Program-made: the position numbers and the translations under genes | The notes under the pieces: model-generated | Database searches by the model: none | Told to the model about the DNA's origin: nothing | The model's input: the letters and a program-made list of their open reading frames with translations, nothing else | Assembly: GCA_963726265.1 (NCBI GenBank) | Contig: CAVSBQ010000002.1 | Location: forward strand, 1,030,533 to 1,094,532 | Direction of reading: 5' to 3' | Origin: Candidatus Aenigmatarchaeota archaeon | GTDB taxonomy: Archaea; Aenigmatarchaeota; Aenigmatarchaeia; QMZP01; QMZT01 | DNA length: 64,000 nucleotides | Shown here: positions 27,714 through 29,956 of the stretch, one piece after another | How the letters are laid out: each line of letters opens with the position of its first letter | Position numbering within the stretch: position 1 is the stretch's first letter

Positions 27714-27859
27714 GCTGAGATGGCCGAGTCCGGTTCAAGGCGCTCGCCTCGAGTGAGCTTTTTAGGAAAAAGCTCAAGCAAAAACGGCAACAGAAAGCTA
27801 ACGCTTCCGGGATAGCGAGTGGGCATCCGCCCGCGCAGGTTCGAATCCTGCTCTCAGCG
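27714..27859 (+). tRNA. tRNA-Ser(CGA) with a 60-nt intron at 37/38 (27754-27813)
   Basis: Acceptor GCTGAGA/TCTCAGC, anticodon stem CTCGC/GCGAG, long variable arm, BHB central helix CUCG/CGGG. Confidence 0.93.
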
Positions 27860-27868
27860 CTAACCATC

Positions 27869-27940
27869 GGGCTGGTGGTCTAGTGGCATGACGTCGCCTT
27901 CACACGGCGAAGATCGAGGGTTCAATTCCCTCCCGGCCCA
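27869..27940 (+). tRNA. tRNA-Val(CAC)
   Basis: GGGCTGG/CCGGCCC, TCGCC-TTCACAC-GGCGA, GAGGG-TTCAATT-CCCTC. Confidence 0.96.
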
Positions 27941-27977
27941 TGCTTATAAATCAGGCCAAAACATATTCACTATATCT

Positions 27978-28050
27978 GGGTCCATGGTCTAGTGGTTATG
28001 ACGTCTGCTTGACGTGCAGAAGATCGCTGGTTCGACTCCGGCTGGACCCA
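27978..28050 (+). tRNA. tRNA-Val(GAC)
   Basis: GGGTCCA/TGGACCC, TCTGC-TTGACGT-GCAGA, GCTGG-TTCGACT-CCGGC. Confidence 0.96.
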
Positions 28051-28098
28051 TGTTTTCTTGCACATCCCTTTTAATTTTTAACTGCTATTTATTCATTC

Positions 28099-28524
28099 AT
28101 GTTCGGTTACAAACCCCCAGGAAACATAGACAAGACACCCTATTATGTCAGCGACAGGTCCGATATTATTCCGAGAAGGCCGGGGGTGAGCCTGACTGAC
28201 ACGAACTATGCAGTTGCGAGATTCAATCAGCAGGCCGCTAAAGAAGGCCTCTACACCGTGGAGCTTGTGAGAAGTCTGCTTTTCCGCCACAGAATCGAAC
28301 CTGAGGAAGGCGAACCAGAAAGGGATATAAGATCGGATGCAGTCAGGTTGGCGGGGAAAAAAACCGGCACACCAGTCATCAAAGGAGGCGGCAGGCTGCA
28401 CATGATAGCATACACGCTGAAACAGGCAAAAGAAATATACGATTCTTTTATAGAAAAAGGCTTGGTAGCATCTCTGGATGAAAGCACTATTGCATCCGAA
28501 CTCAGAAAGATAATAGACGAGTAG
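28099..28524 (+). CDS. Hypothetical protein (orphan between two tRNA genes)
   Basis: 141-aa ORF with A-rich codons. Confidence 0.6.
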   Translation: MFGYKPPGNIDKTPYYVSDRSDIIPRRPGVSLTDTNYAVARFNQQAAKEGLYTVELVRSLLFRHRIEPEEGEPERDIRSDAVRLAGKKTGTPVIKGGGRLHMIAYTLKQAKEIYDSFIEKGLVASLDESTIASELRKIIDE

Positions 28525-28559
28525 GTTTTTATAAACAAGGCCGGATTATGTATTATCAT

Positions 28560-28741
28560 GCCCCGGTAGTCTAGCCCGGTCAATTCCCGAACAGAATTGA
28601 GTTCGGGAAACAGCGAGGATACCGGCCTTTCGGGTGCTTTTCGAAGTCTCGAAAGGTAAGAGTTTCGCTGCATGCCTCATGCACGAAGCAATGACTTCAC
28701 GAAGAAAGCCGGTGACCCGGGTTCAAATCCCGGCCGGGGCA
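28560..28741 (+). tRNA. tRNA-Glu(UUC) with two introns: D-loop 20b/21 (28583-28615) and 37/38 (28633-28706)
   Basis: GCCCCGG/CCGGGGC acceptor, CCGGC/GCCGG anticodon stem; both introns fold into BHB motifs (central helices CGGU/ACAG with one mismatch, and CUUU/GAAG). Confidence 0.92.
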
Positions 28742-29588: not shown

Positions 29589-29641
29589 TGCTGTTGCAAG
29601 TTTTTAAACCGAGAAGTCCATGTATTTTAAAGTGATAGCAA

Positions 29642-29806
29642 ATGCCAACCTTTGAAAAATATTGCGACAAGTGCGGAGAGCCGTGCACGGCGCTCAAGAA
29701 CGTGAACGGCAGGATGCTCTGCCCCAAGTGCAGGGGCGTCCATCTCCAGGAGGACGAGGAAGTCACGAGGAAACAGAAGCGCAGGAACATGTGGCTGGAC
29801 AAGTAA
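29642..29806 (+). CDS. 54-aa zinc-ribbon microprotein (below the ORF-track cutoff)
   Basis: MPTFEKYCDKCGEPCTALKNVNGRMLCPKCRG...; its TAA abuts tRNA-Leu G1. Confidence 0.75.
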   Translation: MPTFEKYCDKCGEPCTALKNVNGRMLCPKCRGVHLQEDEEVTRKQKRRNMWLDK

Positions 29807-29956
29807 GCGGGGGTACCCAAGCGGTCAAAGGGGCTAGAATACCTAATCCAAGGGTATGGCCAAGTTTAGGTATGGCTAAGTTCAGGCGTTGGCTGAAAAG
29901 CCATGGAAATGCCTAGTGCTTTAGTAGCTTCCAGGGTTCGAATCCCTGCTCCCGCA
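29807..29956 (+). tRNA. tRNA-Leu(NAG) with introns at 30/31 and 37/38; two alternative anticodon exons, UAG (29864-29870) and CAG (29880-29886)
   Basis: GCGGGGG/CTCCCGC acceptor, CCCAAGCGGTCAAAGGG D-arm, CTAG|G...G|CCTAG stem, Leu-type variable arm, CAGGG-TTCGAAT-CCCTG. Confidence 0.93.

Follow-up and report, generated by a model that had tools for sequence, protein, structure and literature searches.

Can a single transfer RNA (tRNA) gene supply two isoacceptors by joining either of two anticodon micro-exons, in cis, to the same 5' and 3' exons? This question is raised by a 150-nt tRNA-Leu gene in a 64,000-nt stretch of DNA from an Aenigmatarchaeota archaeon (the whole stretch is referred to below as the window), in which the heptamers GTTTAGG and GTTCAGG, with the anticodons UAG and CAG, lie in tandem within the intervening sequence. 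The window corresponds to positions 1030533-1094532 of contig C2 of a 1.13-Mb metagenome-assembled genome (MAG), which comprises 4 contigs with 52% G+C and an estimated completeness of 88%. The gene was unseen by ARAGORN and by Rfam (default and E-value modes) and was miscalled as Thr(agt) by ARAGORN with one intron permitted; the Leu genes were therefore read by hand and with custom scripts. Taken from the sequences, the conservation of both micro-exons, the covariation specific to each splicing route, the recurrence of comparable architectures, the complementary distribution of stand-alone genes and the presence of suitable enzymes indicate that one cis-spliced gene probably supplies both Leu(UAG) and Leu(CAG). 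In that case both pairs of cleavages would take place in the cell, and both products would accumulate and be charged.

Two predicted splicing routes in one tRNA-Leu gene

The gene is of class II, carries 74 extra nt between G30 and G38, and reads GCGGGGGTACCCAAGCGGTCAAAGGGGCTAG, the 74 nt, and GCCTAGTGCTTTAGTAGCTTCCAGGGTTCGAATCCCTGCTCCCGCA. Its flanks give a full tRNA-Leu body, including the acceptor strands GCGGGGG/CTCCCGC, A73 at 29956, a D arm with CCC/GGG, a long variable arm and the T arm CAGGG-TTCGAAT-CCCTG. Within the gene lies a 16-nt tandem duplication, GGTATGGCCAAGTTTA at 29853-29868 followed by GGTATGGCTAAGTTCA at 29869-29884, the repeat units ending in GTTTAGG and GTTCAGG. The two copies differ at two bases, C29861/T29877 and T29867/C29883, the latter of which is the wobble base, and the array was also detected by Tandem Repeats Finder (29853-29886, period 16, 2.1 copies, 88% matches).

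Splice sites were read under an assumed standard archaeal bulge-helix-bulge (BHB) geometry, that is, a 4-bp central helix H between two 3-nt bulges with the cut (↓) after the second bulge base. All four introns, A1 and A2 on the UAG route and B1 and B2 on the CAG route (Table 1), have 3-nt bulges and a 4-position central helix, with 4/4 pairs in A1 and B1 and 3/4 pairs in A2 and B2 of this genome; helix h' of intron B2 requires a 1-nt bulge. At the 30/31 site, two repeated 3' halves, GGCC-AA↓G ahead of GTTTAGG and GGCU-AA↓G ahead of GTTCAGG, would compete for a single 5' half (GGCU-AG↓A). At the 37/38 site, a single 3' half (GGAA-AU↓G, 29905-29911), which forms the end of intron B2 with H3 GGAA at 29905-29908 and bulge A29909 T29910 ↓ G29911, would pair with positions 32-35 of either micro-exon, the candidate 5' halves being UUUA-GG↓U for intron A2 and UUCA-GG↓C for intron B2. 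The spacer between the micro-exons has a part in each route: on the CAG route it forms the 3' end of intron B1, contributing the final 3 nt of h', the H3 strand GGCT (29874-29877) and the bulge AA↓G, and on the UAG route it forms the 5' end of intron A2, in which ATGGCT pairs with AGCCAT at 29899-29904. Micro-exon A is itself taken into the h' helix of intron B1.

The original prediction had described the duplication with its two differences, the four introns with their bulges and helices, and a single A35-G mismatch in the shared 37/38 helix (GGAA, 29905-29908); the duplication matches the sequence base for base, and the introns and the mismatch are likewise as described. It had further taken a UU-NAG-GG loop as typical of Leu(NAG), which holds for the stand-alone CAG genes of relatives (UUCAGGG) but not for their stand-alone UAG genes (CUUAGGA). 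Micro-exon B together with G38 equals the anticodon arm of relatives' stand-alone Leu(CAG) genes (CTAGGTTCAGGGCCTAG, in five loci), and the GGCU-AG↓ motif also borders a constitutive 30/31 intron in the Leu(AAG) genes of sister genomes.

According to the mechanism that we propose, a single precursor would contain the shared 5' exon (positions 1-30), the tandem 7-nt elements GUUUAGG and GUUCAGG, and the shared 3' exon (positions 38-73); an epsilon2-type EndA would cut each BHB and RtcB would ligate the ends. Excision of 26 + 40 nt would yield tRNA-Leu(UAG), and excision of 42 + 24 nt would yield tRNA-Leu(CAG). Either pair of excisions leaves an 84-nt RNA that is called tRNA-Leu(tag) or tRNA-Leu(cag) by ARAGORN, and a product retaining both micro-exons receives no tRNA call from the same program. 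Once the 30/31 intron is gone, only the selected micro-exon would extend the anticodon stem into the 37/38 central helix, so the first cut would largely decide the outcome. After removal of A1, RNAfold makes the stem and H pairing of exon A with the shared H3 about 200 times likelier than that of exon B, a preference that fits commitment by the first cut.

Both enzymes are encoded in the genome. EndA is a single 398-aa open reading frame (ORF; C2 ~199.4 kb; L068 853-2049) with PF01974 and PF02778, which matches the three-unit epsilon2 EndA of ARMAN-2 (PDB 4FZ2) over its full length (E = 2e-108), and RtcB is identified by PF01139 (E = 5e-156). In vitro, the ARMAN-2 enzyme cleaves BHB motifs of both the strict and the relaxed kind (PMC3239211; PMC3488258). 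In 2018, epsilon2-type EndA was stated to be known from Micrarchaeum and Mancarchaeum only (PMC5829648); the present genome, that of an Aenigmatarchaeota, encodes a three-unit enzyme of this type.

Conservation and covariation of both micro-exons

The locus was searched against 60 related genomes and the matches were then read. The same design, CTAG-intron-GTTTAGG-9 nt-GTTCAGG-intron-GCCTAG (type I), was found in 20 further species genomes, giving a total of 21 and covering 9/10 genera of the family, a recurrence far beyond chance. The introns of type I genes vary in sequence and length, and extra introns occur in the D loop, the variable arm and the T loop, which marks these genes as independent, diverged copies. 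A homologue of the zinc-ribbon-like ORF upstream of the gene was found at the same place in 11 type I loci from 7 genera (tblastn E 1e-18 to 2e-27), and this shared position indicates that the type I loci are orthologous. When the loose 14-base pattern GTTTAGG-N9-GTTCAGG was run on contigs, 3/120 among the matches listed were the gene.

An anchored 81-column alignment of the 21 genes was constructed and parsimony steps were counted on a tree of those 21 sequences. The 14 micro-exon columns required 0 steps, both heptamers being invariant in 21/21 genes, compared with means of 2.1 steps for paired and 4.0 steps for unpaired intron columns; only 28% of the intron columns are invariant. The 5' half-site of the 30/31 intron is unchanged in all 21 genes.

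The helices of the UAG route are paired in 89.8% of cells, against 34-49% in slid controls, and those of the CAG route in 91.7% of cells, against 23-46%. Family-wide, central-helix pairing amounts to 90-99%, with 98.8% of cells for A1, and 97.6% of cells are paired for B1. Compensatory changes were found in helices that are private to each route, namely in h' of A1 at columns 12-22 (AU, GU, GC) and 13-21 (CG, UG, UA), in h' of A2 at columns 44-64 (CG 6, UA 5, UG 4), in h' of B1 at columns 10-40 and 12-38 (with G-C in G006), and in h' of B2 at columns 56-68 and 58-66. The 5' base of the column 13-21 pair also forms U-G with an invariant exon-A base on the CAG route, and column 44 also pairs with the G of GGCU (GC 11, GU 9). 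Opposite wobble position 34, the intron base is G in 16/21 genes, a base able to pair with U34 as well as with C34. In none of the 21 genes is the distal B1 helix shorter than the proximal A1 helix, and in 20 it is longer, the proximal helix ranging from 2 to 8 bp and the distal helix from 5 to 11 bp. Purifying selection is thus seen on both exons and on both sets of helices, and the conservation of both copies in relatives, which had been proposed as a check, is borne out by 21 genes with route-specific covariation.

The two repeat units also co-vary with each other at alignment columns 29-30 and 45-46 (G014, G016, G011 and G019). Both units of G014 and G016 have AG↓G as the 3' bulge, both units of most other genomes have AA↓G, and in many genomes the two 16-nt units differ at the wobble base only. 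These patterns suggest gene conversion between the units or a common constraint on the bulge bases.

The precursor had been pictured in the original prediction as a two-state folding switch that makes two isoacceptors from one gene, and its two halves fared differently. The production of two isoacceptors agrees with the gene census, the conservation, the covariation and the canonical products, but the strict folding switch is retained only in part: the coupling pairing between the spacer and AGCCAU is kept in genera g1, g7 and others and is absent from g8, g10 and G009 of g6. Nor did the folding energies, calculated with RNAfold, which misfolds the mature tRNA body, give two dominant states. 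The minimum free energy (MFE) structure, at -55.1 kcal/mol, contains the A1 BHB, while the folds with A1+A2 and with B1+B2 have -48.2 and -45.1 kcal/mol, respectively, so that neither complete route is the MFE structure.

Gene distribution and competing explanations

The host genome was surveyed by a search for T arms and acceptor pairing and by Leu-type 5' and 3' ends. Four Leu genes were found, reading UAA, CAA, AAG and the dual UAG/CAG (Table 1). Elsewhere in this genome, no tRNA-like context was found to hold an uninterrupted anticodon arm with UAG or CAG, and no second dual gene or similar tandem repeat was found in or near its other tRNA genes. Every Leu 5'-pattern match in 23 genomes of the family was then fetched and read; 3-4 of these matches fell in non-tRNA sequence, and no stand-alone UAG or CAG gene was found among the rest, all of which read UAA, CAA, AAG or dual. 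G018 (77% complete) is the sole family genome in which the dual gene was not seen, and a UAG/CAG gene is absent there too among the matches read. Leu genes were also read by the 5' pattern in 12 other dual-gene genomes. Separate Leu(UAG) and Leu(CAG) genes, the absence of which had been named as strong support for dual output, were found neither in the host genome nor in the other dual-gene genomes.

The pattern GGRGNNNGGYTYAGGRCC, which represents an uninterrupted UAG or CAG arm joined to the D stem, has true matches in 0/33 dual-gene genomes as against 29/58 other genomes of the order, among them every one of the 14 in family f6 (Fisher p = 7e-8, with no correction for phylogeny); a lone match in G338 lies within its own dual gene. 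Among nine non-dual genomes that were read, stand-alone UAG and CAG genes are present in seven, and UAG only in two. An earlier comparison of Leu gene counts per genome by the 5' pattern (4 vs 5) was void, with many outgroup genes missed and 2-5 matches everywhere, and the counting was replaced by gene reading and the anticodon-arm pattern.

The UAG/CAG pair is also offered by types II and III and by hybrids, i.e. by at least three more architectures in the order. Type II contains a duplicated 15-nt segment, GGGGCTAGG[C/T]T[T/C]AGG; in G007, which belongs to genus g4 of the same family, it reads ...CAAA GGGGCTAGGCTTAGG, a 15-20-nt spacer, GGGGCTAGGTTCAGG, a short intron and ACCTAG. The UAG route of type II would require one long 37/38 intron, and the CAG route would require a D-loop intron plus a short 37/38 intron. 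A total of 9 distinct type II sequences were obtained from 6 genomes (families f1, f4 and f5) and 6 metagenome contigs, with variable spacers and introns and with UGAG, GGAG or UGGG as the shared H3. The remaining Leu genes of the six type II genomes are AAG (GAG in G338), UAA and CAA. In type III, found in 6 genomes from two orders, the UAG exon directly continues the 5' exon and a GCTCAGA micro-exon lies within the 37/38 intron. This micro-exon is preceded by a hairpin CUUAG/CUAAG that includes the UAG exon, by H3 AGCC or GGCC and by a bulge AU↓G or GU↓G, forming a BHB-like motif whose central helix is perfect with AGCC and has one G-U pair with GGCC. The shared H3 of types II and III has G opposite positions 32 and 34, where the exons differ. 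Two hybrids were seen, G029 being type-I-like with GCTTAGA and GCTCAGA, and G023 mixing types I and II. The zinc-ribbon ORF was found at type I loci only, with no synteny shared by type I and type II loci, and thus gives no evidence as to which design came first.

Genus g26 contains both arrangements, with a type II dual gene in G333 and G052 and two tandem stand-alone genes (CAG then UAG) in G334; tandem stand-alone pairs also occur in G049, G341, G048 and G054. This distribution suggests that dual genes and tandem stand-alone pairs may interconvert, and may have done so recently. The spacing within the tandem Leu(CAG)/Leu(UAG) pairs is 38-350 nt (L287 = G334:C38:5080-5480; L029 in G049; L257/L258 in G341). 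Some Leu genes of relatives, at least five loci, seem to need at least 5 excisions, from the D loop twice, the 30/31 and 37/38 sites, the variable arm and the T loop, and attain a gene length of 270-450 nt. Many of these inserts carry a common GCCTTTT...AAAAGGC-type hairpin, which suggests a mobile or copied family of introns.

Several observations weigh against dual supply. The complementary distribution is clustered by phylogeny, and within f5 alone it amounts to 0/7 vs 13/41 (p = 0.17). A C34 isoacceptor is dispensable in principle, so a missing CAG gene is by itself no proof, and the family genomes are MAGs with a completeness of 77-95%. The intron base opposite position 34 is A in 5/21 genes, which is perfect for UAG but leaves a C34-A mismatch on the CAG route, and the A35-G mismatch is present on both routes in three aligned genes (the host gene, G002 and G003). 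Intron A2 has no adjacent h' in the genomes of g8, g10 and g6 named above. A mixed A1+B2 fold (-49.3 kcal/mol) is slightly stabler than either complete route and would give a dead-end 100-nt product.

Under one alternative, a single tRNA is made, either UAG, with U34 reading CUA and CUG, or CAG, and the other heptamer is intron structure or the relic of a decaying duplication whose isoacceptor is dispensable. We regard this as unlikely, though it is the strongest of the alternatives. The B1 helix does use micro-exon A as its 3' strand, with UUAGG pairing with CCUAA, and RNAfold assigns P = 0.13 to the A1 site as against P = 0.003 to the B1 site; CUA makes up just 3% of Leu codons in the host genome. 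Both heptamers are nevertheless fixed, whereas the strands that they pair with differ between genes: facing an unchanged exon A, the 5' strand shows substitutions of G for A, C for A and G for U. For exon B, no pairing partner is conserved at all. Four architectures retain the U/C difference at position 34, the compensatory changes fall in helices private to each route, and non-dual genomes usually retain both stand-alone genes. C34 isoacceptors are also present in other codon boxes of the host genome, where approximate ARAGORN calls gave Gly CCC, Val CAC, Thr CGU, Ser CGA, Gln CUG, Glu CUC and Arg CCU, and CUG accounts for 33% of its Leu codons.

The Leu(CAA) genes of the family serve as an internal control for the same possibility. 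An intronic hairpin TCTTGAA/TTCAAGA occurs in their 30/31-region intron (C2:413778-413926 in the host genome and seven further loci); TTCAAGA, its 3' strand, nearly repeats the anticodon exon CTCAAGA, and pairing of its 5' strand with one or the other is possible. Near-copies of loop sequence can thus exist in introns of this family with no second anticodon, as the production of a single tRNA would have it. The near-copy is, however, present in only 8/19 family genes, mutated in one and absent in ten, and this patchiness indicates that such copies are not kept merely through being there.

Far less probable is an ordered pathway, in which micro-exon A would be spliced in and then removed with the spacer via GGCU...GGCU-AA↓G (a bulge-helix-loop, BHL), so that only Leu(CAG) accumulates and the UAG form is transient. 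By sequence reading, removal of A1 leaves the H5 strand, the H3(B) strand and the two bulges in place, the UAG exon of type III sits in the BHB-like motif described above, which would excise it, and the ARMAN-2 enzyme cuts hBH and BHL motifs (PMC3239211). In type I, however, there are just 9 nt from the bulge to H3, which makes an h' helix impossible; the A2-private helix covaries (columns 44-64), which would be pointless if A2 were unused; and the pathway would leave CUA with no dedicated decoder. An artefact or a dead gene, that is, a chimera formed in assembly from two Leu genes or a pseudogene from a slipped 16-nt duplication, might be suspected from a MAG in 4 contigs and a gene that standard tRNA finders miss. 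It is effectively refuted by 20 further species genomes, each assembled independently, that show the same arrangement with introns that have diverged and synteny that is kept, by perfectly conserved exons and by the lack of any other gene able to supply the UAG/CAG anticodons.

Dual supply by one gene therefore remains our preferred reading. As to how it would work, we lean, with little more than even confidence, towards cis alternative tRNA splicing in which the ratio of products would be set by a contest between the proximal half-site, transcribed first, and the distal one, and which would have arisen or been remodelled several times in Aenigmatarchaeota-like DPANN.

The third CUN decoder of the family is Leu(AAG), with A34 and the loop CUAAGGA or similar, in place of the usual archaeal GAG; CUC makes up 31% of Leu codons in the host genome. 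It is kept across the family and most of the order (16 loci in relatives), GAG being found instead in G338 and G026, and Leu(AAG) has previously been reported in ARMAN-4/-5 (PMC3239211). No TadA-like deaminase to account for A34 was found in the host genome, whose sole CDA-fold deaminase is ComEB/dCMP-deaminase-like. A tRNA cluster lies upstream of the dual gene at window positions 27714-28741, comprising an interrupted gene at 27714-27859 (tRNA by Rfam; Ser(cga) by ARAGORN with an intron permitted), Val(CAC) at 27869-27940, Val(GAC) at 27977-28051 and a 182-nt gene at 28560-28741. Between the zinc-ribbon ORF and the dual gene, no clear A/T-rich promoter box was seen, and the regions upstream of Leu(UAA) and Leu(CAA) are A/T-rich; the dual tRNA may be co-transcribed with the ORF.

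Table 1. Coordinates of the dual tRNA-Leu gene, its predicted splicing elements and the other Leu genes of the host genome (window positions, unless contig C2 is named; the arrow marks the cut)
Feature	Position	Strand	Length	Remarks
Whole tRNA-Leu gene, dual Leu(UAG/CAG)	29807-29956	+	150 nt	Positions 1-30, 74 nt of introns and two micro-exons, positions 38-73; CCA not encoded
5' exon, tRNA positions 1-30	29807-29837	+		Ends ...GGGGCTAG
Shared 5' half-site of the 30/31 intron, within the 5' exon	GGCT 29832-29835, bulge A29836 G29837 ↓ A29838	+		
Intron A1 (route UAG)	29838-29863	+	26 nt	6-bp h' ATACCT 29839-29844/GGGTAT 29852-29857; H3 GGCC 29858-29861; bulge AA↓G
Micro-exon A, GTTTAGG, positions 31-37	29864-29870	+	7 nt	Anticodon UAG; invariant in 21/21 genes
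Spacer TATGGCTAA	29871-29879	+	9 nt	Two roles, one per route
Micro-exon B, GTTCAGG, positions 31-37	29880-29886	+	7 nt	Anticodon CAG; invariant in 21/21 genes
Intron B1 (route CAG)	29838-29879	+	42 nt	5' site common with A1; 8-bp h' ATACCTAA 29839-29846/TTAGGTAT 29866-29873
Intron B2 (route CAG)	29887-29910	+	24 nt	Hairpin TGGCT-GAAA-AGCCA
Intron A2 (route UAG)	29871-29910	+	40 nt	From just past micro-exon A to the shared 3' site; includes micro-exon B
3' exon, positions 38-73	29911-29956	+		G38, CCTAG, variable arm, T arm, acceptor strand, A73
Zinc-ribbon-like ORF	29639-29806	+	55 codons	Two CxxC pairs; TAA stop adjoins tRNA base 1; context, outside the splicing unit
Leu(UAA)	C2:264826-265006			
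Leu(CAA)	C2:413778-413926			
Leu(AAG)	C2:960937-961076			

Relation to known tRNA and splicing systems

Full-text literature searches found no published cis alternative splicing of a tRNA, in agreement with the original prediction, which knew of no cis mutually exclusive anticodon exons; a 2026 preprint on tRNA introns in Asgard archaea is silent on alternative exons. The closest known case is the tri-split tRNA-Gly of Caldivirga maquilingensis, which works in trans (Fujishima et al. 2009, PNAS; PMC4390854). Like the dual gene, it combines a shared 5' piece and a shared 3' half with two alternative anticodon-loop pieces to give synonymous isoacceptors; the junctions are BHBs cut by the tRNA splicing endonuclease, and the alternatives differ in the anticodon only. 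In that system the pieces come from separate genes and separate transcripts and are joined in trans via paired leaders, whereas here there is one 150-nt gene and one transcript, so that the 7-nt alternatives would compete in cis and exclude each other, each lying inside an intron of the other's route. The pieces all fall within one 150-base stretch of a single strand and are colinear in 21 genomes, unlike split tRNAs, which come from separate loci.

Sharing of a half between isoacceptors has been described for the split tRNA-Glu(UUC)/(CUC) of Nanoarchaeum equitans and the split tRNA-Ala(UGC)/(CGC) of C. maquilingensis (Randau et al. 2005; PMC4390854). These also combine one constitutive part with two U34/C34 isoacceptors and save genes in reduced genomes. 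They differ from the present gene in being trans-spliced from separate loci, with a complete 5' or 3' half gene of its own for each isoacceptor and with no intramolecular competition. The architecture, conservation and gene census of the dual gene fit the joining of alternative anticodon pieces to shared constitutive pieces.

Archaeal tRNA genes with multiple or non-canonical BHB introns are found in Thermoproteales and ARMAN-2 (PMC3239211; review PMC4090602). The dual gene resembles them in its introns at the 30/31 and 37/38 sites, in BHB motifs of the strict or relaxed form, and in the broad-specificity epsilon2 EndA together with RtcB, and its relatives add introns in the D loop, the variable arm and the T loop. 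The predicted excisions would restore a canonical cloverleaf, each intron has a BHB or relaxed motif, and both enzymes are encoded, which would place the gene in this class. In the multi-intron genes known so far, a single set of introns leads to a single product, whereas the dual gene has two overlapping sets with common outer sites and two predicted products. A comparable logic operates in Drosophila Dscam, where spliceosomal mutually exclusive exons are chosen by competing pairings between docking site and selector, and one shared element with one partner leads to the retention of one tandem exon. There the spliceosome carries out the reaction; here a protein endonuclease and a ligase would act on BHB motifs of a tRNA substrate with 7-nt exons in an archaeon.

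Should both products be made, the gene would be the first known case of a tRNA gene alternatively spliced in cis, and would break the rule of one anticodon per tRNA gene. It would also mean that protein-catalysed BHB splicing supports an exclusive choice of exons by competing pairings, a logic so far tied to spliceosomal genes. Incomplete tRNA sets in DPANN have been taken to point to undetected disrupted genes (PMC5829648), and since tRNA finders miss or miscall genes of the present kind, Leu(UAG) and Leu(CAG) seem to be missing from DPANN genomes; decoding capacity would then be underestimated by tRNA gene counts. With a 150-nt transcript, one EndA and one ligase, the gene offers a compact system for how folding kinetics set the ratio of isoforms. 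It bears as well on the interconversion of split, tri-split and intron-containing tRNA genes, and the occurrence of dual and tandem stand-alone genes within one genus would provide a rare view of that transition.

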